A stretch of 64,000 bases of DNA from an uncultured Candidatus Saccharibacteria bacterium (GTDB taxonomy: Bacteria; Patescibacteriota; Minisyncoccia; Ryanbacterales; 2-02-FULL-48-12). A program made the position numbers and the translations under genes. Of this stretch, positions 5,811 through 32,071 are shown piece by piece. Location of the stretch: positions 1,107-65,106 of the forward strand of contig CAYZNS010000006.1 in the NCBI GenBank assembly GCA_964479945.1, read 5' to 3'. The notes beneath the pieces are model-generated. The model was not told the DNA's origin and made no database searches. It saw nothing but the letters and a program-made list of their open reading frames with translations. The first letter of the stretch is position 1, and each line of letters begins with the position of its first letter.

Positions 5811-5878
5811 AAGCGCCTCCGTAAAATATCAAAATAGCGTTCATGGTAAAGTCAAGCACGGAAAGATACGCGCGTCAA

Positions 5879-6532: not shown

Positions 6533-6572
6533 ACGTAAACAGTAAGTACTAAGATGTGCCTTTATAATAACA

Positions 6573-6612
6573 CTGACGCAAATAAGCGGCTCAACAATTA
6601 TTCTGGCTGAGC
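6573..6612. terminator. 12-bp perfect hairpin ATAAGCGGCTCA/TGAGCCGCTTAT downstream of the tRNA-like gene
   Basis: ataagcggctcaacaattattctggctgagccgcttat seen directly. Confidence 0.4.
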
Positions 6613-6626
6613 CGCTTATGCACGAT

Positions 6627-6712
6627 GTGCACCCACTAGGAGTTGAACCTAGAACCGTCTCATTAAGAGGGAGCTGCTCTGCCTCCACCGGCTGGCGGAT
6701 GAGCTATGGGTG
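6627..6712 (-). tRNA. aberrant tRNA-like gene: perfect 7-bp acceptor stem, canonical T-arm (GGTTCAACTCC), anticodon loop CUCUUAA (CUU, Lys-like) with two stem mismatches, and a 16-nt palindromic hairpin (TCCGCC-AGCC-GGTGGA) embedded in the D-loop
   Basis: Reverse complement GCACCCATAGCTCA[TCCGCCAGCCGGTGGA]GGCAGAGCAGCTCCCTCTTAATGAGACGGTTCTAGGTTCAACTCCTAGTGGGTGCA. 86 nt fits a class-I cloverleaf only if the bracketed hairpin is an insertion. Confidence 0.35.
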
Positions 6713-6770
6713 CTTAGAAAGTGTTTACAAACTCTTCAAAAGCGAAGGTTTTGTAAACACTTTCTTAAAG
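6713..6770. repeat. Palindromic repeat family F, short copy (TTAGAAAGTGTTTACAAAC ... GTTTGTAAACACTTTCTTA)
   Basis: Same termini as the 185-bp copy at 39964-40148. Confidence 0.65.
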
Positions 6771-6833
6771 CTAATTTGGAAAAGTCAGTAGGAAAAGGTG
6801 GGTAAATATTATATACATTATCTACTCTATTCG

Positions 6834-17516: not shown

Positions 17517-18629
17517 ATGCCCTCAAAAAAAGAAATAGAACTAACACTGGAAGAGACGGAAACTGCGCTCGCTTCCGCGGCCGCGGCAGAAGCTGACCGT
17601 CTGGACGAACAGTCGTACTGGCTGGACCAGGCGCTGCGCAGCGAAGTGCCCAACAGCGTATTGGAACGCGCCTATGCGCTGCACAAGGAAACGAACGGCA
17701 TGCGCGGTTTGGCGCCCGAAGTTTTTAGCAGCGTGCCCTTTCCTTTGGAAAAGGGAGGTAGGGAGGAATTTGTTGATTCAAATAAAAAAACAGTTCCAGA
17801 AACTGCCAAAACCGGAGAGACGCTCTGGGGCATTCTCTACCGCGAATTTGCAAGCGGCAAGAATCTGGATGATCCGCATGTTGCCGACATATTCAACCAC
17901 CTGCCACCTGCCGCGCAGTGTCATTTTGTGGATGCCACTGAAGACTATATTCGCACGCGCGCTGCTGAAGAGAAACGCACAATGCACAAAACAATTTCCT
18001 TGAGCGCCCCTGAAGTTGACGCGATAAAAGACGGAGACGCGCTTAATCTGGATTCCGTATTGAAAAATGAGGAGCTGCTGCTGCACTTGGTGGATAAAGC
18101 AAAAGAAATTGCAGTTATTATGGAAGGAGTGATACAGGAACATAGCAAAAAAACAGCCGAGTGGATGCGGTACCATCAAGCGGAACCGCACACCGAAGCA
18201 AAGCTGGAAGAAATACTCTACGGCCCGGAAGCGGCAAAGACATTCGCCGAGCCGCCCGCGGACGAGATATTCAAGCTTATGCAAAAAGTAAAAAGCGGCT
18301 CTCCCGTAGGACCGCACGAAGAGAAAGCGGTTGCGGAGACATTAGCGCTCTACGAACGCAAAATCCGCGATCGTTTTACCATGACAACCAGTGAATATAT
18401 CCGTATACGAAGCCTGCCCGTACACACCCTGCTCGAAGCCGTGCCGCCCGATAAAAAACAACTCGCGTTTATTACGCAAAACGCCGTGCGGCCAGAGCTA
18501 TTGAATGTGCCGGATGCGGAATTCAGCAAGCGCGTGCGCATAGCGCAACTCATCCGCGCGTACTCATTCAGCAAGGAGCTCCGCACTATAACCATACGCC
18601 AGTTCTTCCGCGGGATTGTGGAGAATTAG
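17517..18629 (+). CDS. hypothetical protein
   Basis: ORF only. Confidence 0.45.
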   Translation: MPSKKEIELTLEETETALASAAAAEADRLDEQSYWLDQALRSEVPNSVLERAYALHKETNGMRGLAPEVFSSVPFPLEKGGREEFVDSNKKTVPETAKTGETLWGILYREFASGKNLDDPHVADIFNHLPPAAQCHFVDATEDYIRTRAAEEKRTMHKTISLSAPEVDAIKDGDALNLDSVLKNEELLLHLVDKAKEIAVIMEGVIQEHSKKTAEWMRYHQAEPHTEAKLEEILYGPEAAKTFAEPPADEIFKLMQKVKSGSPVGPHEEKAVAETLALYERKIRDRFTMTTSEYIRIRSLPVHTLLEAVPPDKKQLAFITQNAVRPELLNVPDAEFSKRVRIAQLIRAYSFSKELRTITIRQFFRGIVEN

Positions 18630-19737
18630 AGGGCACGCTATAGTATGCTCCATGCAGCGTGAGCATATTTTTGCAAATGCTCTCAACCATATACCGGAGC
18701 TTGGACCGCGCCGTCTGGCGGACCTTTATGCGCGGTTTGCCTCTTTTGAGCGCATGTGGCACGCCGCGTTATCCGATCTTGGTTTGGCTCTCCATAATGA
18801 TGCGCTCGCGCGCGCTGTCGCCGAGAAGCGCCGCGCTATCAATCCCGAACGGGAGTATGAGCGTGCCAGATCCCGCAACATAACAATCATACTGAAAACT
18901 GATCCTGCTTATCCTTCCCACCTGCGAGATCTGCCGGATTCCCCCGCTCTCTTATACATAGAAGGCGCGTTGCAGGCATTTACTCTCCCCGCGCTTGCCG
19001 TTGTTGGTACGCGTTCCCCGACACCTTACGGCCGCGAAGCGTGCCGCGCGCTGGTAGGCCCCGTAGCGGCCGCAGGCATTCCCATTATTTCCGGACTTGC
19101 TGTAGGCATTGACGCAGAAGCGCATAAAACAGCTCTTACGGAAAGTGGATATACGATAGGAGTTTTGGGATCTGGCATAGCGCGCGACGCTCTGTATCCA
19201 ACCCAAAACAAACGCCTCGCCGATGAAATAATCGCGCATGGGGGCGCACTTATTTCGGAATACCCGCCGTTTTTTAAAGCGGCAACATGGACATTTCCCA
19301 TGCGAAACCGTATTATCGCGGGGTTGAGCGCTGCCGTGCTTGTGGTAGAAGCAAAAGAAAAAAGCGGTACGCGCATTACCGCAAATTATGCTGCCGAATA
19401 CGGTCGCGACGTGCTTGCCGTACCAGGCGCTATCTTTTCCGCCAACTCATGGACGCCCCATAGCTTGATCCGGGATGGCGCGGCGGCGGTTACATCAGCC
19501 CATGAAGTGTTCGATGCTCTTGGGTTGCAGCGCCCTACCGTTGCAAGCGCCGTTGCCAATGTATCGCCGGATGAGCAGACAATTCTTGCTCTATTAGAAC
19601 ATGAACCGCGGTCAGCAAACGATTTGGCGCGCGGCTGCGCGATTGGCATCGGCGCCATACAACATATTCTCGCGCATTTTGAAATACGTGGTATGGTACG
19701 GAATATGGGAAACGGAGTGTACAGAAAAGTATCATGA
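18616..19737 (+). CDS. dprA: DNA-processing protein DprA (Smf)
   Basis: LAVVGTRSPTPYGREA...GLAVGIDAEAHKTAL...MRNRIIAGLS is Rossmann-like DprA signature. The dprA-topA order is conserved in many bacteria. Confidence 0.8.
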   Translation: MWRIRGHAIVCSMQREHIFANALNHIPELGPRRLADLYARFASFERMWHAALSDLGLALHNDALARAVAEKRRAINPEREYERARSRNITIILKTDPAYPSHLRDLPDSPALLYIEGALQAFTLPALAVVGTRSPTPYGREACRALVGPVAAAGIPIISGLAVGIDAEAHKTALTESGYTIGVLGSGIARDALYPTQNKRLADEIIAHGGALISEYPPFFKAATWTFPMRNRIIAGLSAAVLVVEAKEKSGTRITANYAAEYGRDVLAVPGAIFSANSWTPHSLIRDGAAAVTSAHEVFDALGLQRPTVASAVANVSPDEQTILALLEHEPRSANDLARGCAIGIGAIQHILAHFEIRGMVRNMGNGVYRKVS

Positions 19738-19740
19738 AAA

Positions 19741-19800
19741 CATTAAAACACAAGAACATAAAAACACTTCTGCTTTAACATTTTTGTGTTTTAATGTTTT
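19741..19800. promoter_or_regulatory. Inverted repeat CATTAAAACACAA / TTGTGTTTTAATG between dprA and topA
   Basis: Seen directly. Candidate terminator or leader hairpin. Confidence 0.3.
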
Positions 19801-19828
19801 CATGTTGTAGTGCTTTAATGAATTACCA

Positions 19829-22093
19829 ATGAAATCCCTTGTAATTGTAGAATCCCCCACTAAAGCCAAAACCATTTCCCGCTTCCTCGGGAAAGATTTT
19901 GTCGTGGAATCCAGCTTCGGCCACATTCGCGATCTGCCTTCGTCGTCGCTAGGCATTGACGTAGAGCATAATTTCACACCCAAATATGTTATTCCCCGTA
20001 AAGCATCGCCGAAGGTAAAAAACTTGAAAGAACTCGCGAAAAAGGCAGATCGTATTATTCTGGCAACTGACGAAGACCGGGAGGGAGAAGCCATAGCGTG
20101 GCACCTCACCCAGGCCCTTGGCCTGGGAAATTCCAATTTCCAAGAAACAATTTCCAAACGAATTACAAACAAAAACAAAAAATCAAATTCAAAACAAAAA
20201 AAAGAACACGCTCCACGCTCCACGCTCCACGCTCCACAAATCCAACGGATCGTTTTTCATGAAATTACCAAAAAAGCGATAGAGGATGCGCTTAAGCATC
20301 CGCGGGAGATTGATGCGCATCTAGTGGACGCGCAGCAAGCGCGGCGTATTTTGGACCGGCTGGTTGGCTATAAGCTCTCGCCGTTTCTCTGGAAGAAGAT
20401 AGTGCGCGGTCTCTCTGCCGGCCGCGTACAGTCAGTTGCCGTGCGGCTTATTGTAGATCGCGAACGCGAAATTGAAAAATTCAAACCACAGGAATATTGG
20501 TCGATTTCCGCACTACTGCGGAAATCGCAATTTCCAATTTCCAATCCACCAACTGGCGGACAATTTCCAAACGAATTTGAAGCACTGCTCATAAAAAAAG
20601 GCAACGAATCGCTGGATAAATTTGCCATAAAAACAAAACAGGCGGCGGATAATATTGTTGCTGATCTCACCGGCGCTTCCTACACCGTAAAATCCGTAGA
20701 GAAAAAAGCAACCCAGCGCATGCCCCCGCCTCCCTTTACCACGAGCACGCTTCAACAGGCGGCATCAGCGCGAATGGGATATTCCGCGCGCCAGACCATG
20801 GTATTAGCCCAGCAATTATATGAAGGCATTGATGTTGGCAACGGCGGCCATACCGGCTTGATAACCTATATGCGCACCGATTCGCTTAATCTATCCGCAG
20901 AATCGCTCACAGCAGCCGCAGTTTATATTACATCCGCGTGGGGTTCTTCGTACGCACTGTCCGCACCGCGCGTTTATAAAACAAAATCAAAGGGGGCGCA
21001 GGAAGCGCACGAGGCAATCCGTCCCACCGACGTTACGCGCGCGCCCGCGCGCATAAAACAATATCTTGACAATAAGCAATATAAATTATACGAACTCATA
21101 TGGCAGCGTTTTGTAGCAACGCAAATGCCACCCGCAATATTCGACAGTACAACTGTCGATATTGCGGCAAATCACAAAACACAAATCACAAATTCCAAAC
21201 AAATTCCAAATTCAAAAATCCAAAATCAAAACATAGAATACCTATTTCGCGCCACGGGGTCCGTTCTGAAGTTTGACGGATTTCTCAAAGCGTACCCCAT
21301 AAAAACGGAGGACAAATTGCTACCGGAACTTGTGGAAAAACAGGTACTTGATCTGGAGAAACTGGAGCCGCGGCAGCATTTTACCGAGCCGCCTCCACGG
21401 TATTCGGAAGCATCTCTTATTAAAGTGCTGGAAAAAAACGGCATTGGTCGGCCTTCCACCTATGCACCAACCATCGGCACCATTCAAGAACGCAATTATG
21501 TGCAAAAAAATGAGGCAAAACGCTTCCAACCGACTGAGATGGGCGTTATGGTAAACGACCTCTTGGCAGAACATTTCCCCGCTATTGTAGATGTGCAATT
21601 TACCGCGCGCATGGAAGAAGACTTGGATAAAATAGCAGAAGGAGAGCGCGCATGGGTGCCGACCATTCGGGAATTTTATGAACCGTTTGAAAAAACCTTA
21701 CTGGAAAAATACGAAACCGTTAAAAAACAAACCACAGACGAAACTACGGACGAGATATGTGAAAAGTGCGGCAAGCCGATGGTAATAAAACACGGGCGCT
21801 TCGGTAAATTTATTGCCTGTTCCGGTTTCCCGGAGTGCCGCAACACGAAACGTTCGTCCGAATCCTCCCCAGCCATTGGCATACCCTGCCCCAAATGCGG
21901 CGCGGAAATTATCCAAAAAAGAACGAAACGCGGTAAATTTTTCTTCGGCTGCAGCGCCTATCCCACATGCGATTTTGCTTTGTGGGATAAACCCACCGGG
22001 GAGAAATGTCCGAAATGCGGCTTGTTGATGGTAGAGAAAGGGAAGAAAGTTGTTTGTTCTGATAAGGAATGTGCTAGGGTATTAGAGCATTAG
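19829..22093 (+). CDS. topA: DNA topoisomerase I with three C-terminal C4 zinc ribbons and three in-frame low-complexity insertions
   Basis: Toprim IVESPTKAKTI. Active-site region LITYMRTDS. Zinc ribbons CEKCGKP...CSGFPEC, CPKCGAE...CSAYPTC and CPKCGLL...CSDKEC. Confidence 0.9.
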   Translation: MKSLVIVESPTKAKTISRFLGKDFVVESSFGHIRDLPSSSLGIDVEHNFTPKYVIPRKASPKVKNLKELAKKADRIILATDEDREGEAIAWHLTQALGLGNSNFQETISKRITNKNKKSNSKQKKEHAPRSTLHAPQIQRIVFHEITKKAIEDALKHPREIDAHLVDAQQARRILDRLVGYKLSPFLWKKIVRGLSAGRVQSVAVRLIVDREREIEKFKPQEYWSISALLRKSQFPISNPPTGGQFPNEFEALLIKKGNESLDKFAIKTKQAADNIVADLTGASYTVKSVEKKATQRMPPPPFTTSTLQQAASARMGYSARQTMVLAQQLYEGIDVGNGGHTGLITYMRTDSLNLSAESLTAAAVYITSAWGSSYALSAPRVYKTKSKGAQEAHEAIRPTDVTRAPARIKQYLDNKQYKLYELIWQRFVATQMPPAIFDSTTVDIAANHKTQITNSKQIPNSKIQNQNIEYLFRATGSVLKFDGFLKAYPIKTEDKLLPELVEKQVLDLEKLEPRQHFTEPPPRYSEASLIKVLEKNGIGRPSTYAPTIGTIQERNYVQKNEAKRFQPTEMGVMVNDLLAEHFPAIVDVQFTARMEEDLDKIAEGERAWVPTIREFYEPFEKTLLEKYETVKKQTTDETTDEICEKCGKPMVIKHGRFGKFIACSGFPECRNTKRSSESSPAIGIPCPKCGAEIIQKRTKRGKFFFGCSAYPTCDFALWDKPTGEKCPKCGLLMVEKGKKVVCSDKECARVLEH
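20128..20240 (+). repeat. In-frame insertion 1 in topA (AATTTCCAA / CAAAAA motifs, then CACGCTC x4)
   Basis: Encodes GLGNSNFQETISKRITNKNKKSNSKQKKEHAPRSTLHAPQ, between conserved AWHL and RIVFHEITK blocks. Confidence 0.55.
20521..20577 (+). repeat. In-frame insertion 2 in topA carrying CAATTTCCAATTTCCAATCCACCAACTGGCGGACAATTTCCAAAC
   Basis: Near-identical to tsaD segment 60317-60366. Confidence 0.6.
21168..21236 (+). repeat. In-frame insertion 3 in topA (AAATCACAAA / AATTCCAAA / CAAAATCAAAA motifs)
   Basis: Encodes NHKTQITNSKQIPNSKIQNQN. Confidence 0.5.
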
Positions 22094-22254
22094 GTTTTAG
22101 AGCATTATTGAGCTTTCATAAACAGCTTAACATGGTCGTCTTCTCAAAAATGCTTTAAAATAGGCATTTTACGGGGCATGCGCCTGTTAAGTGAATAGTG
22201 AAAGGTCAATAGAAAATGGGAATCCTACTAACCTAAAGCTCTAATGCTCTATTC

Positions 22255-23982
22255 ATGGATTGGAAACAATTTAACCAAATACTAACAGACCTCGGCTATT
22301 CCGAGAGTGATCGCGAATTCATATCGCAGGCTTTTTCTTTCGCCCGGAATGCTCATGAAGGACAGAAGCGCGCATCCGGCGAGCCGTATTTTACCCATTT
22401 AGCAAACGTCGGCGCATATATAGCGGAGATGAAGCTGGACGCGCATACGATAGCGGCCGCCCTTTTGCATGACGTACTGGAAGACTGCGCCGTGCCGCAG
22501 GAAGAGCTCGCGCGCCGTTTTGGAGAAGATACGGCATTTCTTGTTGAGGGTGCCACAAAACTTGGCACCGTGCGGTACCGCGGCATACAGCGCAAAGTTG
22601 AGTCGCTGCGCAAAATGTTTCTTGCAGTGGCCCAAGACGTGCGTGTAGTCCTTATCAAACTTGCCGACCGCCTGCACAATATGCAGACAATCCAATATCT
22701 TCCGCCGAAAAAACAACAACGCATCGCAACTGAAACGCTGGAGATCTATGCGCCTATTGCGTACCGCCTCGGCATGGGCGGCATGAAAGGCGCGTTGGAA
22801 GACCTCGCGTTTCCTGTTACGAATCCGGACGAATACGCATGGGTATGCCGCGAAGTGAAACACCGTGTACCGGAAGGCGAACAGTATCTCCGAGAAGAGG
22901 TAAAACCAGCGCTGGAAGAATTCCTGCATGCGGACGGCATACACCCTATTGCCATTGATTTTCGTAAAAAACATCTCTATAGCTTATGGCAGAAACTGCT
23001 TCGGTACAATATGGACTTCGGCCGCATTACGGATCTCCTTGCCATGCGCGTTATTGTAGATACTGTTGAGGATTGTTATCAGACGCTTGGCATCATTCAT
23101 CAACTCTGGAAGCCGCTTCCCGGCCGCATCAAGGATTACATAGCGCTTCCAAAACACAATGGCTACCGAAGCCTGCACACCACCGTGTTCTGCGGTGAAA
23201 ATAAAATAACGGAGTTCCAGATACGAACGCAGGAGATGCACGACGAAGCGGAGCGCGGCGTTGCCGCGCACTGGATGTACACGGAAACCGGCAAGCCGAA
23301 ACGAGGAGCGGCCGTGGAGCGGCAAACTGCATGGATACAAAAACTCTCCGCATGGCAGCAGGAGGTGGGCGCGGCTGAAGACGATGATGAATTTTTAGAA
23401 TCCTTAAAGATAGATTTCTTCAAAGACCGCATTTTCGTCTTGACGCCGAAAGGAGAAGTAATAGACCTCCCTGCTGGGGCAACGCCCGTTGATTTTGCGT
23501 ATGCAATACACTCAGAAATTGGGGACCATATGATGGGGGCCAAGGTAAACGGCAAACTCTCACCCTTTGACCGCGAGCTCGCCTCCGGCGAAACAATAGA
23601 AATTCTCACGCAAAAAAATAAAAAACCGAACGCCGAGTGGCTTTCGTTCATAAAAACGTCGCTCGCCCGCAACCGCATACGTGCCGCCGTCCGTAAAGAG
23701 CCAGAGGGCGCTTCTTCAGGCGCCACCCGCAAAAAGCAGCATCAGCAATATCAATGCGTCATTACCGGCCGCGACCGCGTGGGCTTGCTCAAAGATATAT
23801 CCGCGATATTTTCCGAATTCCGCATTAACATTCAGCACATCGCCATGAATACGAAGAATAAACAGCAATATCCGGATATCGTCATATCGTTTCAGGCACG
23901 CGATGAGCGGCAAGTGCACAGCGTCGCCACGCGCCTCAAAGGTGTCCCTGATATTGAAGAAATTGCAATGAAACGGGTGTAG
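22255..23982 (+). CDS. rel: RelA/SpoT-family (p)ppGpp synthetase/hydrolase (HD + synthetase + TGS + ACT domains)
   Basis: HD motif LLHDVLED. Synthetase core RVIVDTVEDCY...KDYIALPKHNGYRSLHTTV. TGS block IFVLTPKGEVIDLPAGATPVDFAY. C-terminal ACT-like region. Confidence 0.85.
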   Translation: MDWKQFNQILTDLGYSESDREFISQAFSFARNAHEGQKRASGEPYFTHLANVGAYIAEMKLDAHTIAAALLHDVLEDCAVPQEELARRFGEDTAFLVEGATKLGTVRYRGIQRKVESLRKMFLAVAQDVRVVLIKLADRLHNMQTIQYLPPKKQQRIATETLEIYAPIAYRLGMGGMKGALEDLAFPVTNPDEYAWVCREVKHRVPEGEQYLREEVKPALEEFLHADGIHPIAIDFRKKHLYSLWQKLLRYNMDFGRITDLLAMRVIVDTVEDCYQTLGIIHQLWKPLPGRIKDYIALPKHNGYRSLHTTVFCGENKITEFQIRTQEMHDEAERGVAAHWMYTETGKPKRGAAVERQTAWIQKLSAWQQEVGAAEDDDEFLESLKIDFFKDRIFVLTPKGEVIDLPAGATPVDFAYAIHSEIGDHMMGAKVNGKLSPFDRELASGETIEILTQKNKKPNAEWLSFIKTSLARNRIRAAVRKEPEGASSGATRKKQHQQYQCVITGRDRVGLLKDISAIFSEFRINIQHIAMNTKNKQQYPDIVISFQARDERQVHSVATRLKGVPDIEEIAMKRV

Positions 23983-24298
23983 GTGACTAGCCGAGCTCTA
24001 TCCCGGTGCAACCGCGGATGGATATGGATATCTCATCCAGAAAACGCATCATGTCATTCCCGCGTAGGCGGGAATCCAGTTGTCCGCCCGAGGCGGATCA
24101 GCATCCGGATGAAAAAACATATATACCTTCAATGGTAATGGATCCCGCATCAAGTGCGGGATGACAAATTATGTCGCATGTGGTGCGGATTCATAATGTT
24201 TTATCTATAGCCGGGCTCAGCACCGGAAATGCTTACCGGTGCCGTATTCCGGAATGTGCCGAACCCCGGTGGAACCTGAATTAGTCACAACCTTGCAC
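23983..24298. repeat. Composite ~315-bp copy of repeat family A with internal hairpins (ATTCCCGCGTAGGCGGGAAT, CCCGCATCAAGTGCGGG)
   Basis: Left end is GTGACTAGCCGAGCTCT, the inverted family-A arm. Right end has CCGGAATGTGCCGAACC ... TAGTCACAACC. Confidence 0.6.
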
Positions 24299-25987
24299 TT
24301 ATTCAGTCAAGAACTCAATTCCTCCTGCATCTTTTTGCACACACAATTTCCCATTCTTGAGCGTTATAGCACCTTTTCTTATAGGATCATATAAATATTT
24401 TTTTCCTTGTGGATGGTTTTTTTGGTATTTAATGAAATCTACAAGGATATCTTTAAATGTGGGTATATTTTTTAAAACATGTTTAACTATCCCATCTATG
24501 TAAGCAGTCGCATCGCCTTCCCTGCCTCGCATACTGTCCTCAAATGAAGCCAGTTCCTCTCTTGTCATTCCATTCCTAACTAAAAGGATGAATCTATTCA
24601 TTGCGTCCAAAGATTCTGGTTTATAGAGAGGATCTTTTGGCGCCTGCTTTTCCATTTTTTCTCGCCATTCTTTCAAGCCAATTTCCGGATCGGTGCTAAT
24701 AGTAATACCACTTTGCATGAGTTCCTTTTCAACAGCAAGTAGTCTGCGCCATATATCAGCGCTATTCTGCACAGCATCTACTACACGATTATTAATAACA
24801 TCCATGTACAATTTCTCTTTTTTTGGGATCTCCACTTTTATACGGCTCAAAACTTCTTTAAAAAAGAAAACATTTTTGATGTTCTGTTTGCAATCACGAA
24901 TCATATGCTTTAAAGTGAAATACCGCTTAACATCCACGTTACTGTCATCCTGAATGTCCTCTTCGGAGACCATACCATCCAATCGTTTATCAACTTTCTT
25001 GGCCTCAAAAAGAATATTTTGCACTTGTGGTAATAATTCCACATTCTCCATTATTGCATTATGTTCTTCTCTGTCTATCTTTTTTAGCGTTCCTGATAGA
25101 TAAATTAAATTCAACTCATCACTCCTGGAATCTATGGCTATGTTTTGTAAAATTTGATCCATTTCGTGAGTACCAAATCCTTTGCTCTCTGCTTTTTCAA
25201 CCATCGCCGCATAATATTCTATTTTCTCGGGTATCTCAAGTTTATTAAACTCAAGCACTTGCTCCAACCGCAACTCTCGCAACTGCTCAGGCGTTAATGG
25301 AAGTTGTTCCTGCACGCCACCAAAACGATCAACTCTCGATAGCGGCGACCCTTCATTTGTCTTTTCTTCGTATTCTGCCAACTCTTCCTCTGAAGAAGTT
25401 CTTGGTATTGATTGAATAAATTCTTTATACGTTTTCGCTTTTTCGGGATACTGGCTCGCAAATTCATTCCACATATGGATTGAATTTGCTTCGTATGTCC
25501 GATTCCAGACTTCATTGAATTGAAGTGTCGGTTTCTCAAGTGCTTGCCGCACACCAGAATCGGCATTTGTTTTTCTTAGTATTTCATTTTCCAAATTTTG
25601 AACAGCGGGATCATCAATAGGGTTATCGTAGATACGTTTCTCCTCTCGTGCATCATACATCTGTGCTACTTCACTAAATTTCTCTCGAAAGAGATTTTCG
25701 GCTCGATCATCCAAAGTAACCGGCTTCTCATGTTTTTTAAAAGCAGTTGGATCGCCAAACATATAATCTTGAAACTCGGAACGCAGTTCATTTCCATTCC
25801 ACCTATTACCATTCTGTCTTTCCCAATCAGCGATCAATTCATCTTTTATTGACTGAAATCTTGGATCATCAATTAATTTCCTCGTCAGACTCAACTCTTG
25901 CGTCTCGATTTTCTTATCCATACTTTCATCCTTATCTGGTTCAATTATTCGCGGCTGTTCGTATAAAATTTTTTTTTCGCCTTCCAT
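24299..25987 (-). CDS. hypothetical acidic protein (562 aa)
   Basis: ORF only; AT-rich relative to its neighbours. Confidence 0.5.
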   Translation of the reverse strand: MEGEKKILYEQPRIIEPDKDESMDKKIETQELSLTRKLIDDPRFQSIKDELIADWERQNGNRWNGNELRSEFQDYMFGDPTAFKKHEKPVTLDDRAENLFREKFSEVAQMYDAREEKRIYDNPIDDPAVQNLENEILRKTNADSGVRQALEKPTLQFNEVWNRTYEANSIHMWNEFASQYPEKAKTYKEFIQSIPRTSSEEELAEYEEKTNEGSPLSRVDRFGGVQEQLPLTPEQLRELRLEQVLEFNKLEIPEKIEYYAAMVEKAESKGFGTHEMDQILQNIAIDSRSDELNLIYLSGTLKKIDREEHNAIMENVELLPQVQNILFEAKKVDKRLDGMVSEEDIQDDSNVDVKRYFTLKHMIRDCKQNIKNVFFFKEVLSRIKVEIPKKEKLYMDVINNRVVDAVQNSADIWRRLLAVEKELMQSGITISTDPEIGLKEWREKMEKQAPKDPLYKPESLDAMNRFILLVRNGMTREELASFEDSMRGREGDATAYIDGIVKHVLKNIPTFKDILVDFIKYQKNHPQGKKYLYDPIRKGAITLKNGKLCVQKDAGGIEFLTE

Positions 25988-26004
25988 AATTTTAAATATT
26001 TATA

Positions 26005-27108
26005 TTACACCGTAAAAGTAGTAAGATCCTCAGGCCGCGCCATACCTTCCTCTTCCGGCTGTTCGTTCTGTGACTCATGTATGGTAACCGCGCTTCCGCT
26101 TGTATCTTCTTCCGGCATTGCGCCGCTTGCCGCCGCGTTGTCAGCCGCCATGCGCACCAATAAATTCTGCAACTCTTCTTCCGAGAAAAATTCTATGGAT
26201 ATTTTACCTTTCCCTTCCCTGTTCCGGCGCACGGAAACGCGCGTACCAAGCGCGTTAGCAAGTTTTGTCTCAAATGTGCGCGTTGCCACATCAAATGTTT
26301 CATTATCAGATTTTTTTGTCGCCTTCAGCGCCGGACCTATGCGTGCGAGCACCTGCCGCACCGAGTATTCTATGTCCCGCGATACCAACCCCTCCGACAA
26401 TATCCGGCGAAATAACACACGCTGTTCATCTTCATTATGAGAAATGCCCAGCAAAGGACGCGCCTGCCCTTCCGTCATACGCCCATGCGCAATAGCTTGC
26501 TGAATATAATCCGGCAATGCAAGCAAGCGCACGGTATTCGCCACCGCTTCCCTGCTTTTTGCCACGCGCATGCCAACTTCCCGCGCCGAGAGGTGAAACT
26601 CGCCCATAAGGCGCTTGTATGCCTGTGCTTTCTCCATCGCATTTAAGTCCTCGCGCTGTAAGTTTTCAATAAGGGCAAGCTCCAGCTTTATTTTATCGGA
26701 CTCCTCACGCCGTATCACAGCCGGAATATGCGCCAAGCCGATCATGCATGCCGCGCGGTACCGCCGCTCGCCCGCGATAATCTGGTATTCCACCTGCGTA
26801 CCGGTCGGCACGTCAAACTCCCGCTTGGAGACTACAATGGGCTGCAGCATGCCGTATTGCCGGATTGATTCGGCAAGCGCGCGGATTTTCTCTTCATCAA
26901 AATGGGTACGCGGCTGTTCCGGGTTGGGCTTTATCTTTGTGGTCTCAACCCAAAACACGCTTTCTTTTGGCCGCTCATTGGCCGGCGGCAGATTACTCGA
27001 CGCTGCCGGAGGAGCACTGATTTCTACGCTGCTTTGAGAAGAAGCCGCCGTTTCTTCGCCGCTTCCCCCCAGAAGAGCGTCAAGCCCGCGTCCTAATACG
27101 TTTGCCAT
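26005..27108 (-). CDS. parB: chromosome partitioning protein ParB/Spo0J
   Basis: ParB box IAGERRYRAACMIGLAHIPAVIRR plus HTH region. Confidence 0.85.
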   Translation of the reverse strand: MANVLGRGLDALLGGSGEETAASSQSSVEISAPPAASSNLPPANERPKESVFWVETTKIKPNPEQPRTHFDEEKIRALAESIRQYGMLQPIVVSKREFDVPTGTQVEYQIIAGERRYRAACMIGLAHIPAVIRREESDKIKLELALIENLQREDLNAMEKAQAYKRLMGEFHLSAREVGMRVAKSREAVANTVRLLALPDYIQQAIAHGRMTEGQARPLLGISHNEDEQRVLFRRILSEGLVSRDIEYSVRQVLARIGPALKATKKSDNETFDVATRTFETKLANALGTRVSVRRNREGKGKISIEFFSEEELQNLLVRMAADNAAASGAMPEEDTSGSAVTIHESQNEQPEEEGMARPEDLTTFTV

Positions 27109-27180
27109 ACTATCATTCTACTAAATTATTCTTTAAACATCAAACAAAGTTAATTACATGAGCGCTTGCGCCGTTTTTTT

Positions 27181-27253
27181 AATGAATTATGAAGATAGAA
27201 TTATGAATTATGGGAAAAAATCTTGTTCCATAATTCCTGATTCATAATTCATC
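27181..27253. repeat. Palindromic element family I (GAATTATGAA ... TTCATAATTC) in the parA-parB intergenic region
   Basis: aatgaattatgaagatagaattatgaattatggg...ccataattcctgattcataattcatc. The same motif class is inserted in tsaD at 59752-59832. Confidence 0.6.
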
Positions 27254-27276
27254 TCTCACCCAAGCAATCCCATAGA

Positions 27277-27305
27277 ATATGTTCGAAACGCAGTTTTGAA
27301 CATAT
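27277..27305. promoter_or_regulatory. Imperfect 13-bp-arm palindrome ATATGTTCGAAAC-GCA-GTTTTGAACATAT between parA and parB (candidate parS/operator)
   Basis: Seen directly. Related palindromes TGTTCGAAAC-N3-GTTTCGAACA occur in the family-G repeats. Confidence 0.3.
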
Positions 27306-27307
27306 GT

Positions 27308-28069
27308 CTATCCAACTAACCCAAGTATCTCTTCCGTAAGCTGCCAATATGCTTTGGCGCCATGCGAACGGGGCGCGTAGCGGAGTATTGTTTTTCCGAA
27401 ACCCGGCGCCTCGGCGAGCTTTGCGTTGCGGGGTATTACGGACTGAAACACGTAATAAGCTGATTTTTCCCGCACTTCTTTGAGTACCGCGTTCGCAAGG
27501 CGCGATTTTCTATCGTACATGGTACATAAAACGCCCAAAATGCGGGTTTTCCTGCGCGGAGCCTGATTTAGTTTCTGGATCGTACGAAATAGTTCCGACA
27601 TTCCTTCCAGCGCATAATACTCGCACTGAACCGGCACCACCACAAATTGTGAAGCGGCGAATCCGTTCACCGTAAGAACGCCAAGGCCCGGCGGCGCATC
27701 AATATAAATTACGTCATACACGGCAGCGGGCGGCATAAGCGCGCGATCAAGAAAGGTATTGCGCATATGCATATGCGTAAGCTCAATGGCAGTTGCCGCT
27801 AAATCCGGCGTTGCGGGAAGCAGCGACAAGTTGGGTATGGAAGTCTCAATAATTCCTTCGCGCGCGGGCACTTTCCCTATAAGCGCCTCGTACGTTCCCG
27901 GCACCCCCTTGAGCCGCGTCTTCCCCAGCAGCGCGGAGGTGGCATTCGCCTGCGGATCAAGATCAACCAGCAAAACTTTTTTGCCGAACGCCGCCGTGTA
28001 CGCCGCTACGTTTACGGCAGTAGTGGTTTTCCCCACGCCCCCTTTCTGGTTTGCGAAAATAATGGTCAT
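27308..28069 (-). CDS. parA: chromosome partitioning ATPase ParA/Soj
   Basis: Deviant Walker A QKGGVGKTTTAVN. Confidence 0.9.
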   Translation of the reverse strand: MTIIFANQKGGVGKTTTAVNVAAYTAAFGKKVLLVDLDPQANATSALLGKTRLKGVPGTYEALIGKVPAREGIIETSIPNLSLLPATPDLAATAIELTHMHMRNTFLDRALMPPAAVYDVIYIDAPPGLGVLTVNGFAASQFVVVPVQCEYYALEGMSELFRTIQKLNQAPRRKTRILGVLCTMYDRKSRLANAVLKEVREKSAYYVFQSVIPRNAKLAEAPGFGKTILRYAPRSHGAKAYWQLTEEILGLVG

Positions 28070-28166
28070 GCGCTTTAGTATAGGACAACAACAAGAGCTT
28101 GTCTAAAACTTGCACAAATAGGACATATTATGTATACTTTAGAAAAGATATATACAAGGAGGCGTT

Positions 28167-28397
28167 ATGGCAGATGTTAAAGGGGTGTTCTTCAGTTTGT
28201 TGTATCAAAGTTTTTTAAATGAAGTTGACTTGGGAATGCTTGATGAGAATATAATCACCCAAGTCGCAAATAACTTTTGGATAGAGGCCAAAAAGGAAGC
28301 AAAGGGCGGAAGGATTACCAATACAATCTTGGATAAAAAAATCCACGCCGCCACCGAACAGTTAAAGCTCCTTGCGGAGCTTGAAACTACGGTGTAA
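28167..28397 (+). CDS. small hypothetical protein (76 aa)
   Basis: ORF followed by an intrinsic-terminator-like hairpin. Confidence 0.35.
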   Translation: MADVKGVFFSLLYQSFLNEVDLGMLDENIITQVANNFWIEAKKEAKGGRITNTILDKKIHAATEQLKLLAELETTV

Positions 28398-28423
28398 TAA
28401 TTTTATCCTGTTCCCCGTTCCAT

Positions 28424-28447
28424 GCCCCATCCCAAGGGGCGTTTTTT
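28424..28447 (+). terminator. Rho-independent terminator GCCCCATCCCAAGGGGCG + T6
   Basis: Seen directly, downstream of the 28167 ORF. Confidence 0.5.
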
Positions 28448-28448
28448 C

Positions 28449-28477
28449 TTGAAAAAAGAAGAAAAATAAGGTATAAT
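28449..28477 (+). promoter_or_regulatory. sigma70-like promoter TTGAAA-17bp-TATAAT, 10 nt upstream of tRNA-Leu
   Basis: ttgaaa aaagaagaaaaataagg tataat. Confidence 0.5.
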
Positions 28478-28487
28478 TTTCATATGT

Positions 28488-28571
28488 GCCGCGGTGGCGG
28501 AACTGGCAGACGCGTTGGACTCAAAATCCAATGATCGCAAGGTCGTGTGGGTTCAACTCCCACCCGCGGCA
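28488..28571 (+). tRNA. tRNA-Leu (anticodon CAA), class II with long variable arm; CCA not encoded
   Basis: Acceptor GCCGCGG/CCGCGGC. Anticodon loop CUCAAAA. T-loop GGTTCAACTCC. Confidence 0.85.
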
Positions 28572-28604
28572 CTAGTACCCCATTAAATTAATTTTGTCGT
28601 TGTT

Positions 28605-28650
28605 TTTCTGCGTTTTTCTGCGTAAAGTCTGCGAATTTCTGCGAGTACTT
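28605..28650. repeat. Four direct TTTCTGCG-type repeats (iteron-like)
   Basis: tttttctgcgtttttctgcgtaaagtctgcgaatttctgcg. Confidence 0.4.
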
Positions 28651-28763
28651 CCGACAAATTTATTTTAAGGAAGTACTAGCACTTCTCTGTAAAGAAAATG
28701 CAATCACATAACGTAGCGGCGGGAGTTGAAGGGAATGCCGGGGGCATTCCCGGGCCCGAAGGG

Positions 28764-28781
28764 AACTCCCACCCGCGGCAC
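28764..28781 (+). repeat. 18-bp exact duplicate of the tRNA-Leu 3' end (AACTCCCACCCGCGGCAC), att-site-like direct repeat
   Basis: Identical to 28555-28572. Confidence 0.55.
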
Positions 28782-28786
28782 CATTT

Positions 28787-28858
28787 GCCCTCGTCGTTCA
28801 ATGGATAGGACGCAAGATTCCGGATCTTGTAATAGGGGTTCGAATCCTCTCGAGGGCA
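28787..28858 (+). tRNA. tRNA-Arg (anticodon CCG)
   Basis: Acceptor GCCCTCG/CGAGGGC. Anticodon loop UUCCGGA. T-loop GGGGTTCGAATCC. Confidence 0.8.
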
Positions 28859-28880
28859 CAAATGACAAAAGGAGTTATTT

Positions 28881-29162
28881 TTATAGCCGCTTCCTCGTAT
28901 TTTTATACACCACGGACCGATGCTGAATGGCAAATATTTTTACCGTTAATTTCTCTATGCGAAAAATAACGCGATAATCTCCTACACGCAGTTTGCGGTA
29001 TCCGGCAAGAGATTTTCGCAGCGGTTTTCCATACGTCTCAGGATATATTGCAAGCTTTTTCTCAATAGCAAGCCGTATCTTCTTTTTCCATGCGGCAGGC
29101 AAGCGCAGAATATCCTCGCGCACAGCCAACGCATGATACGTTATGGAAAATTTTATTTCCAT
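28881..29162 (-). CDS. relE: RelE/ParE-family mRNA interferase toxin
   Basis: YRKLRVGDYRVIFRIEKLTVKIFAIQHRS is canonical RelE/StbE. Confidence 0.8.
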   Translation of the reverse strand: MEIKFSITYHALAVREDILRLPAAWKKKIRLAIEKKLAIYPETYGKPLRKSLAGYRKLRVGDYRVIFRIEKLTVKIFAIQHRSVVYKNTRKRL

Positions 29163-29380
29163 GCGTTTTTATGCGGTATAAATGTAGCGCCGCGCGTATC
29201 GCGCATACCCGCAACGGCATCCCAAACCTGATCTTCTTCCAGTTCAATAGCCTCTTGCAAAAGTTCCGTTATTTTAGTAGCTTGCGGCGTCTTGTCCCGT
29301 ACGGCAAGCCGCGCCACCGCTTCTTCCAAAGCAGGGGAAAGACTGATATTAAGGCGTTTTTTTGTGGTGGGCATATGCAT
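29153..29380 (-). CDS. relB: ribbon-helix-helix antitoxin paired with relE (10-nt overlap)
   Basis: Small ORF upstream and overlapping the toxin. NISLSPALEEAVARLA is an RHH strand-helix. Confidence 0.6.
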   Translation of the reverse strand: MHMPTTKKRLNISLSPALEEAVARLAVRDKTPQATKITELLQEAIELEEDQVWDAVAGMRDTRGATFIPHKNAWK

Positions 29381-29501
29381 AGTGTATCAAAAGTGTATCA
29401 CACTTGTCAAATACAAAAAAGGGCAGAAATTCTGCCCCGACAGCATCATGCTTACGCAAGCTGCAATGTGCCGACGCGCTGGCGGAACTCCCTAAAATAA
29501 A

Positions 29502-29520
29502 TAATCCCATTTTGGGATTA
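29502..29520. promoter_or_regulatory. Inverted repeat TAATCCC-N5-GGGATTA ~17 bp upstream of the C-protein gene (candidate C-box/operator)
   Basis: taatcccattttgggatta. Confidence 0.3.
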
Positions 29521-29536
29521 TACCACAATAGGATAT

Positions 29537-29773
29537 ATGATACAAACAAGCATGAGCAAATCGGTTTACTCAAAAGACTACAAAGCCATCATAGAACGCC
29601 TAAAGACGGCGCGTATTGAGGCCGATCTATCTCAACAGGCGGTGGCTGATAAACTTGGCAAACCGCAGTCTTATATTTCCAAAATTGAGTCCGGCGAAAG
29701 ACGGCTTGATGTGGCAGAGATGAAAAAATTTGCAGCGATTTACAACAAACCAGCTGACTATTTTTTGAAATAA
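29537..29773 (+). CDS. XRE-family HTH protein; likely controller (C) protein of the restriction-modification module
   Basis: LSQQAVADKLGKPQSYISKIESGERRLDV is an HTH_3 motif. The stop is 1 nt before the start of the downstream nuclease gene. Confidence 0.7.
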   Translation: MIQTSMSKSVYSKDYKAIIERLKTARIEADLSQQAVADKLGKPQSYISKIESGERRLDVAEMKKFAAIYNKPADYFLK

Positions 29774-29774
29774 T

Positions 29775-30386
29775 ATGTTCGATAAATTTATAAAATTCTA
29801 CGAGCGAACAATACGAAAAATGTGGCACATTCGTGCCGGCGGCACTTTACGTTCGCTGAAAGGCACGCTCGTTGAGACGATGGCCGAGGAGATGGTTTTA
29901 CTCGCATGGAAAAATATCGGCGGCAAATCTTCGCGCATCAAAATCAACAAAACAAAATATCCTATCAGTGATGGAAGGGGAAATGTTTATAAGCTGTCCC
30001 AAGATAAACAGGTTTATATTGATGATGAATTTGTGCTGTCAATCGAGTGTAAGGCATATGCAGAGGTCGCGATGTATAAACGTATATTAGTTGATGCCTT
30101 TTTGCTCAAAAAGCATTTTCCAAAACTCAAATTCTGCCTTTTCCAATTAGAAAGTATGCTTGGCGGTGATTACTCCATTGCCGTTGATCATCCGAACGAA
30201 AGCCCATCGGTCAAAGTTCTTGAGCATCATTTTCCAAATCTCGACATTGAGATCATCACTATGCTGGATGGAGAACGAAACATCAAAGGGGAAATACATA
30301 AAAAGCAGTTTTATAAACCACTTCGTCCCGAAAGATTAGACCACGCAATCAAATACTTTGAGCGCGCATTAAAAGAGCATCTCTAA
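29775..30386 (+). CDS. putative type II restriction endonuclease (PD-(D/E)xK fold)
   Basis: YIDDEFVLSIECKAY gives D...E-C-K. The ORF is translationally coupled to the C gene and convergent with the MTase (4-nt stop overlap). AT-rich. Confidence 0.5.
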   Translation: MFDKFIKFYERTIRKMWHIRAGGTLRSLKGTLVETMAEEMVLLAWKNIGGKSSRIKINKTKYPISDGRGNVYKLSQDKQVYIDDEFVLSIECKAYAEVAMYKRILVDAFLLKKHFPKLKFCLFQLESMLGGDYSIAVDHPNESPSVKVLEHHFPNLDIEIITMLDGERNIKGEIHKKQFYKPLRPERLDHAIKYFERALKEHL

Positions 30387-31885
30387 AATAACTTCGCCGG
30401 AATTTCCTTTATTCGTTTCTCGGAGATTTTGCAGTATTTTGGTGAGATATCTATTCCGATATATTTTCTGCCTGTTTCTGCGGCGCAAAGTGTGGTTGTT
30501 CCCGCGCCGTTGAACGGATCAAGTACAATATCGTCTTGATAGCTAAAGAGTTTCATTAGTCGCGTTGCTAACTCCTTTGGAAACATTGCAGGATGATCAT
30601 ATTCTTTCATGTTTCGTTCGGGAGCGATGGACCATTTTGCATAAACCCATTTCTTGAATTCGTCGCCTGTTATATCGGCTTTTGACGAGTCGCCAGCCTT
30701 TTTGTGTGTATCTTTTGAGAAAACTTCAACAAATTCCCATGTGTATTTTAGATATGGCATACTAGGGCTTTTCCAACTGCCCCATGCAGTATACTTGCAG
30801 TTATAGTTATTTTTCTCCCACAAAATTTCTCCCTTCCAGATCAACCCATGATTAAGTAGTTGTTTTGACATCAAATGATGTGTCGGAATGTAATCTGAAA
30901 ACAACGGCTGCACGTTAAGGCAGAGCCGCCCTCCGGGTTTTAGAATGCGCGCGCACTCTTTCCAAATTGCGTCTATCTTCTTAAAATACTCGTCCCAGTG
31001 AATCGCGTCATTTTTCTCATCGTCTTTATATTCTAGGCCGAAATTATACGGTGGAGATGTAATGATAATATCAATCGAACCAGTTGGGATTTTACGCAAA
31101 ACTTCTTCACTGTCGCCACATATAATTTTGTCTGTAAACTTCTCAATGCCATTTGCTTGTGTAACCGCAAAAGCTTCTTTTTGAAATTTTGTGCCGCCCC
31201 GTGCTCTTTCTTTCGCCTCTCTATTTTTGACTTTTCTTTCTCGATTAAGAAGTTTTGCGTCTGGATAAATTTCTACTGGAGACATAAAACCGCCATCACG
31301 AATAACATCAAGCACTATGCCCTGAATTGAAACATCCCGCCCATTTCTAAAAATAAGTGGCTCCATAGTTTTGTTTGCCGGCTGTAAGCGGATATACTCC
31401 CTCTCTTTGTAAAATTTCTTTAAGGTTGCTTCGTGATTGTCGATGAGAGCTACTACCTTTTGTCCGTTCTCGGCTGTTTCCTGCTGACGCACCAAAACTA
31501 TATCGCCATCATTTATATTTTCATCAACCATGCTACTGCCGACTACACGGAGAGCATAAACTTCTGATGAAGAAGGGATTTTACTTTTTGGGACAGCGAT
31601 CATTTCCTTGTCTTGTATTGCTTCGATTGGTTGTCCGGCGGCAATAGTCCCCAAAAGAGGAATTTTTACCATTGTTTCACGACCAAATGCTTCAATAGAG
31701 CGCGGTTTATTTTCTTCTTTAGACAAAAGTCCTAAATCGCGGAGTTTTGAGACATGAAAATGAGCCGTAGAAACGGATGAGAGTTTTAATTTCTTGCGTA
31801 TCTCGTCAAGAGAGGGAGCGTATCCTTTGCGCCCCTGATAATCGGTTATGAAATCGAGAGCTTGTTTTTGCCTTTTTGTTACCAT
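30383..31885 (-). CDS. Fusion protein: complete LexA-type repressor (wHTH + Ala-Gly site + S24 peptidase Ser/Lys dyad) joined to an N4/N6 DNA methyltransferase
   Basis: N-terminal LexA DNA-binding domain at aa 1-65. Cleavage site LLGTIAAGQPIEA with A83-G84. Peptidase motifs VVGSSMVDENINDGDIVLV (Ser118) and EATLKKF (Lys156). MTase motif IV IIITSPPY. MTase motif I VLDPFNGAGTTT, at the C-terminus. Confidence 0.8.
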   Translation of the reverse strand: MVTKRQKQALDFITDYQGRKGYAPSLDEIRKKLKLSSVSTAHFHVSKLRDLGLLSKEENKPRSIEAFGRETMVKIPLLGTIAAGQPIEAIQDKEMIAVPKSKIPSSSEVYALRVVGSSMVDENINDGDIVLVRQQETAENGQKVVALIDNHEATLKKFYKEREYIRLQPANKTMEPLIFRNGRDVSIQGIVLDVIRDGGFMSPVEIYPDAKLLNRERKVKNREAKERARGGTKFQKEAFAVTQANGIEKFTDKIICGDSEEVLRKIPTGSIDIIITSPPYNFGLEYKDDEKNDAIHWDEYFKKIDAIWKECARILKPGGRLCLNVQPLFSDYIPTHHLMSKQLLNHGLIWKGEILWEKNNYNCKYTAWGSWKSPSMPYLKYTWEFVEVFSKDTHKKAGDSSKADITGDEFKKWVYAKWSIAPERNMKEYDHPAMFPKELATRLMKLFSYQDDIVLDPFNGAGTTTLCAAETGRKYIGIDISPKYCKISEKRIKEIPAKLF

Positions 31886-32071
31886 GGTTATATTATAGAA
31901 AATAAATCGAAAGTGTAAAAGGGCAAGTTATCCACATATGTTTATGTTCAGATCAAAACCAGAAGCAATTATAAAAAGATCGAAACCGTCTATTGGTTTT
32001 TGGACAAATGTAGGCGGGATAATAAAAATAAAAAACTATCCAGCCATAAGCGGAATAGTTTTATGTATGCT

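Follow-up and report, generated by a model that had tools for sequence, protein, structure and literature searches.

A duplicated tRNA-Leu 3' end in a Parcubacteria chromosome marks a small insertion scar separate from the neighbouring toxin-antitoxin and restriction-modification genes

Introduction

When the 3' end of a tRNA gene is repeated a short way downstream and defence genes lie beyond the second copy, does the repeat mark all of these genes as one island? We address this question for a 64,000-nt stretch of contig CAYZNS010000006.1 (hereafter the window), which reads as a Parcubacteria (Candidate Phyla Radiation, CPR/Patescibacteria) chromosome and whose ParA has its nearest named homolog, at 70% identity, in 'Parcubacteria group bacterium Gr01-1014_29'. 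The genes run in the order ParB, ParA, a 76-aa open reading frame (ORF), tRNA-Leu, an insert followed by the second copy of the tRNA-Leu end, tRNA-Arg, a toxin, a 75-aa ORF, an HTH_3 protein, a restriction endonuclease (REase), a LexA-methyltransferase (LexA-MTase) fusion, an alpha/beta hydrolase, FolD and GlyA. A preliminary description had suggested that 28.5-32 kb may be one old or decayed element anchored at tRNA-Leu, holding tRNA-Arg, the toxin-antitoxin (TA) pair and the restriction-modification (RM) module, deprived of its integrase and stabilised by the TA and RM genes. We find this reading only partly supported: the scar at tRNA-Leu, the TA pair and the RM cassette arose separately, as three events within a single variable interval. 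The scar is a new example of a kind already known: an insertion scar in a tRNA gene, or an integrase-less remnant, carried by a CPR genome. To our knowledge, integrative elements in CPR and Parcubacteria genomes are little described and poorly catalogued.

Results

The 3' end of tRNA-Leu is duplicated exactly

The 18-mer AACTCCCACCCGCGGCAC was present exactly twice in the window (28555-28572 and 28764-28781), on the same strand and identical at 18/18 positions, with 209 bp from start to start and 191 bp in between. A chance repeat was ruled out by an expectation of about 0.07 matches and by shuffling, in which 0/100 sequences gave two matches. The preliminary description had proposed looking for a third copy in the rest of the genome; within the 64-kb window there was none, even with three mismatches allowed. 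Its account of the repeat as the last 18 nt of tRNA-Leu needs a small correction. The duplicate is exact, and it comprises the last 17 nt of the gene (the 3' part of the T-loop, the 3' strand of the T-stem, the 3' strand of the acceptor and the discriminator) plus one further nucleotide. Copy 1 is followed by TAG. After copy 2 comes CA, so that ...GCACCA is encoded, and TTT separates this end from tRNA-Arg. ARAGORN found no tmRNA or cryptic tRNA, there is no T-loop ahead of copy 2, and no duplicate of the tRNA-Arg end was found.

A promoter-like site precedes tRNA-Leu (Table 1) and drives tRNA-Leu, with tRNA-Arg probably included, the spacer being transcribed, again probably, as a by-product. 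No further promoter and no terminator were found between this site and tRNA-Arg, and tRNA-Arg is therefore probably still co-transcribed.

Relatives carry the ancestral junction

Relatives of graded distance were reached through ParA homologs: L086 (81% identity), L087 and L088 (70%) and L089 (64%). A scan of GTDB with ParA gave only relatives at or below 50% identity and was not useful, and the contigs of the two nearest ParA relatives (85% and 79%) stop short of the tRNA. Three metagenomic contigs of relatives (L127, L128 and L091) break off within tRNA-Leu, 40-65 nt in, a pattern that would fit assembly breaks where a junction is repeated or varies between strains.

The comparison with relatives that the preliminary description had suggested yielded empty sites in L086, L087 and L088. 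In each, the same tRNA-Leu(CAA)/tRNA-Arg(CCG) pair lies beside parA, tRNA-Leu is followed directly by tRNA-Arg, and neither the 18-mer duplicate nor the insert was found. The Leu-Arg spacer measures 47 bp in L086 and 86 bp in L087/L088, compared with 215 bp in the window; L089 has tRNA-Leu without tRNA-Arg. At the L087 junction, the tRNA-Leu end ...CCCGCGGCACCA is followed by 7 nt (cgtaact) and then by GCCCTCGTCGTTCAA, whose 15 nt all agree with the start of tRNA-Arg in the window (15/15, E = 0.007); this fragment lies in the L087/L088 spacer. In the window it is copy 2 that has this junction, reading CCCGCGGCACCA-ttt-GCCCTCGTCGTTCAATGG. Copy 2 is thus the displaced native 3' end of tRNA-Leu, and copy 1 together with the 191 bp after it (28573-28763) is the inserted DNA. 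By this comparison with relatives, the 209-bp segment is an insertion in the tRNA-Leu 3' end; the tRNA-Leu/tRNA-Arg pair beside parA is, on the same comparison, ancestral, and tRNA-Arg lies outside any insert. The earlier interpretation of the duplicate as an integration footprint is upheld to this extent. The stretch TAGTACCCCATTAAATTAATTTTGTCG belongs to the insert, and an empty allele of this locus would read TTCAACTCCCACCCGCGGCACCATTTGCCCTCG. Same-species contigs from five other samples, L081, L083, L084 and L105 among them, carry the scar unchanged.

We also scanned metagenomes with a degenerate pattern for the attL, attR, attB and attP forms, covering 8/64 of the trinucleotides that may precede the core. 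This returned 27 loci, most of them intact CPR tRNA-Leu genes with the same 3' end. The 18-mer goes on with CA, that is, with an encoded CCA, at 22/27 loci, and with TA at the other five.

The spacers of the relatives have a history of their own. Those of L086 (1073-1119, minus strand) and L087 (9754-9839, minus strand) hold a 21-nt 5' fragment, acceptor plus D arm, of an older tRNA-Arg; the L087 fragment is of the window's allele and is broken up by two GC hairpins. A linker, CCTGCCCGCYCTTGCCTTM, is common to both spacers and is followed by a complete, different tRNA-Arg(CCG). What these spacers record is the replacement of one tRNA-Arg allele by another, with a 5' stub left behind. Directly after the replaced tRNA-Arg, L087 has a degenerate T-arm/acceptor-like sequence (GTCGGGATTCGAGTCCCCGTGGAGACGCA; 9610-9680, minus strand) that may be another tRNA 3' fragment.

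The insert is single-copy, non-coding and partly structured

The insert was single-copy both in the window and across related loci, and neither it nor the surrounding region showed similarity to phage, plasmid or viral collections. Its ends, TAGTACCCC... and ...CCCGAAGGG, are not inverted repeats of each other. The four iteron-like repeats of the preliminary description are present and non-random, and all of them lie between the two 18-mer copies. Three are exact copies of TTTCTGCG and one reads GTCTGCG; they occupy 28605-28643 with a period of 10/11/10. The core TCTGCG occurs four times in 37 bp, and the maximum in 200 shuffles was two copies. We infer that these repeats are candidate arm-type recombinase-binding sites. 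Five matches to the TTTCTGCG repeat in IMG/VR had nothing else in common with the insert.

A transposon origin was considered and rejected. A multicopy miniature inverted-repeat transposable element does not fit a single-copy insert with no terminal inverted repeats, and of the hallmarks of such elements or of insertion sequence derivatives (terminal inverted repeats, a target duplication of 2-14 bp, multiple copies) none was found, the duplication here being 18 bp. A casposon-like or other transposon with a long target-site duplication was likewise set aside, there being no terminal inverted repeats, Cas1 or transposase.

The GC-rich 3' part of the spacer raises another possibility, namely that 28713-28783 encodes a functional tRNA-like minihelix RNA ending in ACCA, freed from the joint tRNA-Leu/tRNA-Arg transcript by RNase P cleavage at tRNA-Arg. 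In the predicted fold, GGGAGTT (28721-28727) pairs with AACTCCC of copy 2 to give an irregular 13-bp helix that ends exactly in A-CCA, and the spacer is probably transcribed, as no terminator or promoter lies between the tRNAs. However, the z-score of the fold is only -2.0, Rfam gave no known RNA family in the spacer even at a permissive E-value threshold, the 5' strand of the helix is missing from an analogous scar described below (L122), and the only other copies are identical same-species ones, in which covariation cannot show. As for the CCA, it is just a legacy of the native end of the tRNA. We consider a functional minihelix extremely improbable.

How did the insertion arise?

The best reading, to which we give an even chance of being right, is an integrase-type att scar reduced to a stub by near-total internal deletion. 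A mobile element would have integrated site-specifically through a tyrosine-type integrase, with the crossover within the T-loop/3' end of tRNA-Leu, yielding attL at 28555-28572 and attR at 28764-28781. As the comparison with relatives shows, the incoming DNA supplied the final 17 nt of the tRNA anew, keeping the tRNA-Leu gene intact, and the original 3' end with its encoded CCA was moved 209 bp downstream, still abutting tRNA-Arg. An internal deletion would afterwards have taken out the integrase and the cargo, leaving a 191-bp integrase-less stub that retains an AT-rich stretch and the four helically phased TCTGCG repeats beside attL. In lambda-like attL sites, arm-type integrase sites lie at this position. 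We favour an integrase-type event because of the phased repeats beside the attL-like end, the block of identity running from the T-loop to the 3' end, and a second scar with the identical breakpoint.

That second scar lies in L122, a distant syntenic relative (TopA...FolD-GlyA-Sua5). At L122:1336-1725, a different, complete tRNA-Leu(CAA) comes first, and after it a 90-aa GIY-YIG nuclease ORF (Pfam 4e-15), two GC hairpins and finally AACTCCCACCCGCGGCACCA, an old tRNA-Leu 3' end that consists of the same 18-mer plus CCA and is broken at the identical base as copy 2 of the window (...|AACTCCC). The two inserts showed no similarity, and these are therefore independent events with one breakpoint, which argues for a site-specific cut or crossover.

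The same scar also points to a nuclease. A GIY-YIG homing-type endonuclease might have cut the T-loop region, with repair copying in a donor cassette and the nuclease gene since lost. In L122 the GIY-YIG ORF fills the gap between the new tRNA-Leu and the old 3' fragment, and in L128 a GIY-YIG-like C-terminal remnant lies directly upstream of tRNA-Leu. There is a precedent in phage T4, whose SegB is a free-standing GIY-YIG homing endonuclease within a tRNA gene cluster. Such an origin is nevertheless very improbable in our judgement: tblastn found no remnant of a GIY-YIG protein or serine recombinase in the window, the window and L122 inserts are unrelated, homologous repair does not normally leave an 18-bp duplication, and small GIY-YIG genes are common in CPR genomes, such that their adjacency may be coincidence. 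One weak tblastn match in the window proved to be tRNA sequence overlapped by an ORF of L121.

Several findings weigh against an integrase-type scar. The att-bounded segment is only 191 bp, far under the size of any autonomous element. No recombinase domain was found in 24-35 kb, in agreement with the preliminary description, nor among the 25/54 Pfam families listed for the rest of the window. A donor was sought in IMG/VR, which does not contain AACTCCCACCCGCGGCAC. The metagenome scan, within the trinucleotides it covered, returned no attP-type junction (GGG-core-TA, or the order CCCGAAGGG-core-TAGTACCCC), and none of the 26 other metagenomic loci had a tyrosine integrase beside the tRNA end, a single serine recombinase being the only recombinase. 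Neither that scan nor the same-species contigs held a same-species empty site, the empty sites being those of relatives. In L122, the 3' end of the upstream tRNA-Leu differs, and that scar is not a simple attL/attR pair. Finally, two metagenomic loci have a complete tRNA-Leu followed by a 3' fragment of another tRNA-Leu, beginning at the variable arm after a 37-nt spacer in L111 and at the anticodon stem after a 17-nt spacer in L117. The breakpoints of these and of the L086/L087 scars differ, a better fit to recombination that is not site-specific.

This last pattern brings in allele replacement by homology-facilitated illegitimate recombination, for which an integrase is not needed. The donor would be a related CPR tRNA-Leu with the same 3' end and no encoded CCA, together with 191 bp of its own downstream spacer; a homologous join on the left, in the 5' part of the tRNA or on the parA side, would be paired on the right with an illegitimate join within the T-loop of the resident gene, whose 3' end would survive as a stub. 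Possible donors exist, as intact CPR tRNA-Leu genes with the 18-mer and no CCA occur in L100, L106, L109 and L110. A complete tRNA beside an older tRNA fragment recurs in relatives (L111, L117, L086 and L087) with various breakpoints and tiny spacers, and the distribution of tRNA-Leu and tRNA-Arg alleles is incongruent with ParA identity. What this explanation does not account for is the phased repeat cluster beside the junction, and the breakpoint shared with the independent L122 scar would be a coincidence of about 1 in 80 if breakpoints were random; in addition, the donor sequence did not turn up in the metagenome scan. We rate it as rather unlikely, and it stays a serious rival because neither an integrase nor a donor was found and the breakpoints in relatives vary.

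A further observation concerns DNA that adjoins tRNA genes in these genomes. A conserved motif of about 100 nt starts right after the CCA of tRNA-Arg, tRNA-Leu(TAG) or tRNA-Leu(CAA) in five CPR contigs (Table 1). It consists of GAAAAGTCAATG, a variable hairpin with compensatory changes, and GACCAAATYGTAYGGAWTTTTCGGGGCAAAAA..AATTC.CGATTCCG; it had no Rfam match and was not found in the window. The motif adjoins a 502-aa large serine recombinase in L121, and in L086 it lies before a truncated serine-recombinase N-terminus (MKYILYARKSTEEDDRQVLSIEAQ...). Possibly the motif marks one end of a serine-recombinase element that sits beside tRNA genes; alternatively, it may represent a new RNA motif.

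The TA and RM genes are separate acquisitions

Is the scar nonetheless one end of a larger island that includes the TA and RM genes? These genes are accessory, as the preliminary description held. In L087 and L088, folD follows within about 300 bp of tRNA-Arg, with no TA, RM or hydrolase gene, and in L089 the parA-tRNA-Leu...folD interval (5090-7564) is occupied by another RM system (Vsr, an NgoFVII-like REase and a C5 methylase) along with a glycosyltransferase and a PHP protein. The parA-tRNA-Leu...folD interval is a defence-gene hot spot. Base composition also sets part of the region apart. Against a window mean GC of 0.476 (sd 0.025, 2.5-kb windows), the RM genes (0.40-0.42) are the lowest in the window and ParE is at 0.43; the earlier statement that the whole region is AT-richer than folD/glyA fails for the antitoxin (0.49) and for the last 51 nt of the spacer, FolD being at 0.475. 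The hydrolase gene has a GC of 0.51.

The absence of the TA and RM genes from L087/L088 and the low GC of the RM genes would fit a single island. The direct repeats, however, span 191 bp only, the ancestral tRNA-Arg sits between them and the TA and RM genes, and there is neither a third 18-mer nor a duplicated tRNA-Arg end. The RM genes, moreover, occur alone at other loci and their alleles differ between otherwise identical strains, as set out below. We find a single old island scarcely credible. Its supposed stabilisation by the TA and RM genes does not apply to the scar, from which these genes are separate.

The RM module itself was confirmed by Pfam, NCBIfam and PADLOC. Its LexA part scored 179 bits against the NCBIfam lexA equivalog (cut-off 111 bits). 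The REase and MTase genes are adjacent, as in Type II RM systems, and the pair is kept together at other loci. The REase+MTase cassette has 83-85% nucleotide identity to unrelated loci in L129-L133, the homology stopping at 29756 and 31678. In L131-L133 the pair lies between thiolase and LeuRS genes, and in L129 the protein encoded beside the MTase homolog matches the REase at 183/203 residues. The HTH gene is outside the cassette common to these other genomes. The strain L081 is identical to the window over 18167-30164, and all 40 differences (about 10% divergence) fall in 30165-30524, where the L081 contig ends. This segment comprises the 3' ends of the REase and MTase genes, which converge there, and the differences are a recombination mosaic within the RM cassette. 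The occurrence of the RM pair at unrelated loci and its variation between strains thus indicate an independently mobile cassette, one that, judged from its distribution, moves autonomously and horizontally. The TA pair and the HTH/REase/LexA-MTase module are acquisitions independent of the scar in a variable tRNA-Arg-folD interval, in which the HTH gene and the TA pair count as additional, distinct pieces.

The identification of a relBE pair stands for the toxin, which is of the ParE/RelE family; the 75-aa ORF upstream of it has no family match. TA genes are frequent in this genome, with a second ParE-family toxin at 140-466 (Pfam 2.5e-11) and two PIN-domain proteins elsewhere in the window, and the pair beside tRNA-Arg is therefore not special. 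A palindrome upstream of the HTH gene is possibly its operator. The LexA-MTase has dozens of full-length homolog clusters (53-91% identity) in Patescibacteria, and sister forms, some in other phyla, have the LexA HTH only or no N-terminal domain. The domain fusion suggests that RM expression or activity may be coupled to RecA-stimulated self-cleavage.

Between the TA and RM modules, at 29466-29489, ATGTGCCG-acg-CGCTGGCGGAACT looks like the start of tRNA-Leu together with the four bases before it. As a further scar, the 15-mer at 29475-29489 was rejected, its match being at chance level (BLAST E about 2); its position at a module boundary is suggestive.

On the other side of the parAB-tRNA block, a 562-aa ORF without family match (24299-25987; GC 0.378, GC3 0.34) lies between ParB and RelA/SpoT. 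It is missing from that position in L086, L087, L089 and L090, and this region is a second AT-rich insertion flanking the block.

Table 1. Position and basis of the features discussed (window coordinates unless a contig is named; aa, amino acids).
Feature	Position	Strand	Basis or remark
Promoter-like site TTGAAA-17-TATAAT	28449-28477	+	11/12 consensus match
tRNA-Leu(CAA), intact; last 17 nt are copy 1	28488-28571	+	ARAGORN; Rfam tRNA 59 bits
Repeat copy 1 (18 bp, attL-like core)	28555-28572	+	Completes functional tRNA-Leu; TAG next; no encoded CCA
Insert, no ORF	28573-28763	+	First 140 nt GC 0.34; last 51 nt GC-rich hairpins, GC 0.71
Four in-phase direct repeats (TTTTTCTGCG twice, AAAGTCTGCG, AATTTCTGCG)	28603-28643	+	Begin 31 nt past copy 1
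Perfect 9-bp inverted repeat AGTACTTCC-N16-GGAAGTACT	28644-28677	+	Sequence; repeat search
GC-rich structured insert end plus copy 2	28713-28783	+	Fold energy -36.2 kcal/mol, z = -2.0 only
Repeat copy 2 (18 bp) plus CA, attR-like, encoded CCA	28764-28783	+	3 nt upstream of tRNA-Arg
tRNA-Arg(CCG)	28787-28858	+	ARAGORN; Rfam
ParE/RelE-family toxin	28881-29162	-	Pfam ParE_toxin 2e-8, 35 bits against a 23-bit cut-off
75-aa ORF, putative antitoxin	29153-29380	-	10-nt overlap with toxin gene, upstream of it; no family match
Palindrome AATCCCA-TTT-TGGGATT	29503-29519		18 nt upstream of HTH gene
78-aa HTH_3 protein, like RM controller proteins	29537-29773	+	Pfam HTH_3 6e-16; PADLOC Control_protein 2e-6
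Mobile REase+MTase cassette, extent	29756-31678		Nucleotide homology to other Parcubacteria
Type II restriction endonuclease, 203 aa	29775-30386	+	PADLOC REase_II 1e-52
LexA (HTH + S24 peptidase) fused to N6/N4 DNA methyltransferase, 500 aa	30383-31885	-	Pfam; PADLOC MTase_II 1e-69
Post-tRNA motif	L086:860-1004	-
Post-tRNA motif	L121:5874-6015
Post-tRNA motif	L111:3268-3410
Post-tRNA motif	L098:4695-4837	-
Post-tRNA motif	L108:1-98	-

Discussion

Our results indicate that tRNA 3' ends are insertion points in ultra-small CPR genomes too, and by itself the footprint is a routine one. For annotation they carry a warning: a duplicated tRNA end does not define the defence genes nearby as a single island. 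Of all these findings, only the tRNA-fragment scars that recur among related CPR contigs might open up something new. The pattern in relatives, with independent tRNA fragments, one identical breakpoint, a GIY-YIG gene in one scar and a post-tRNA motif by serine recombinases, bears on the turnover of tRNA loci in CPR genomes. CPR bacteria and Parcubacteria may have an undescribed class of very small tRNA-targeting insertions whose site-specific enzyme would cut or recombine tRNA-Leu genes at a fixed T-loop position (...TTC|AACTCCC...), an idea that we regard as distinctly unlikely; such an enzyme could be an unrecognised recombinase or a GIY-YIG nuclease of the L122 type. If so, resident tRNA genes would be repeatedly overwritten or extended by cassettes that bring either a new 3' end or an entire tRNA, sometimes together with a nuclease gene, and leave CCA-ended stubs. 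The parA-tRNA-folD interval would then be a recombination hot spot and the 191-bp insert a minimal non-autonomous member of the class.

Among known systems, the scar invites comparison with the islands that P4- and lambda-like tyrosine integrases insert in tRNA genes. An intact, regenerated tRNA gene with a displaced fragment in direct orientation is the signature of an island endpoint (PMC4383910, citing Williams 2002 and Reiter 1989; PMC9897764), and the window has both the regenerated gene and the direct 3' fragment. It also resembles these islands in the T-loop-to-3'-end identity block, in the phased repeats beside the attL-like end and in the empty site, the insert being missing from L086, L087 and L088. 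The scar differs in being only 191 bp, with no integrase, no kilobase cargo and no detectable donor or attP. More generally, tRNA gene fragments are footprints of integrated elements in archaea and bacteria (PMC9897764). As in those cases, a partial tRNA copy (attR) adjoins a complete gene; in the published cases the foreign DNA so flanked measures 9-121 kb, whereas here the fragment is 209 bp from the gene.

What is left may also be compared with the cis-mobilizable elements, which are att-flanked, integrase-less remnants of integrative conjugative or mobilizable elements (PMC5704250). The scar is like them in its attL/attR-like bounds, in the absence of recombination and transfer genes and in its presumed internal deletion. 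Such remnants, however, are usually kilobases long and have a known cognate element at the same att site; in our searches of viral, metagenome, phage and plasmid sequences, no cognate integrase-bearing element at the same att site was found.

Beyond tRNA-Arg, the comparison is with Type II RM systems that have a C protein. Like these, the module has convergent REase and MTase genes that overlap by 4 bp, a small HTH gene upstream of the REase and a palindrome before the HTH gene, and it shares with them low GC, variation between strains and different loci in different genomes. It differs in that the HTH gene lies outside the shared cassette and that the MTase carries a complete N-terminal LexA, with both the HTH and the S24 autoprotease domains.

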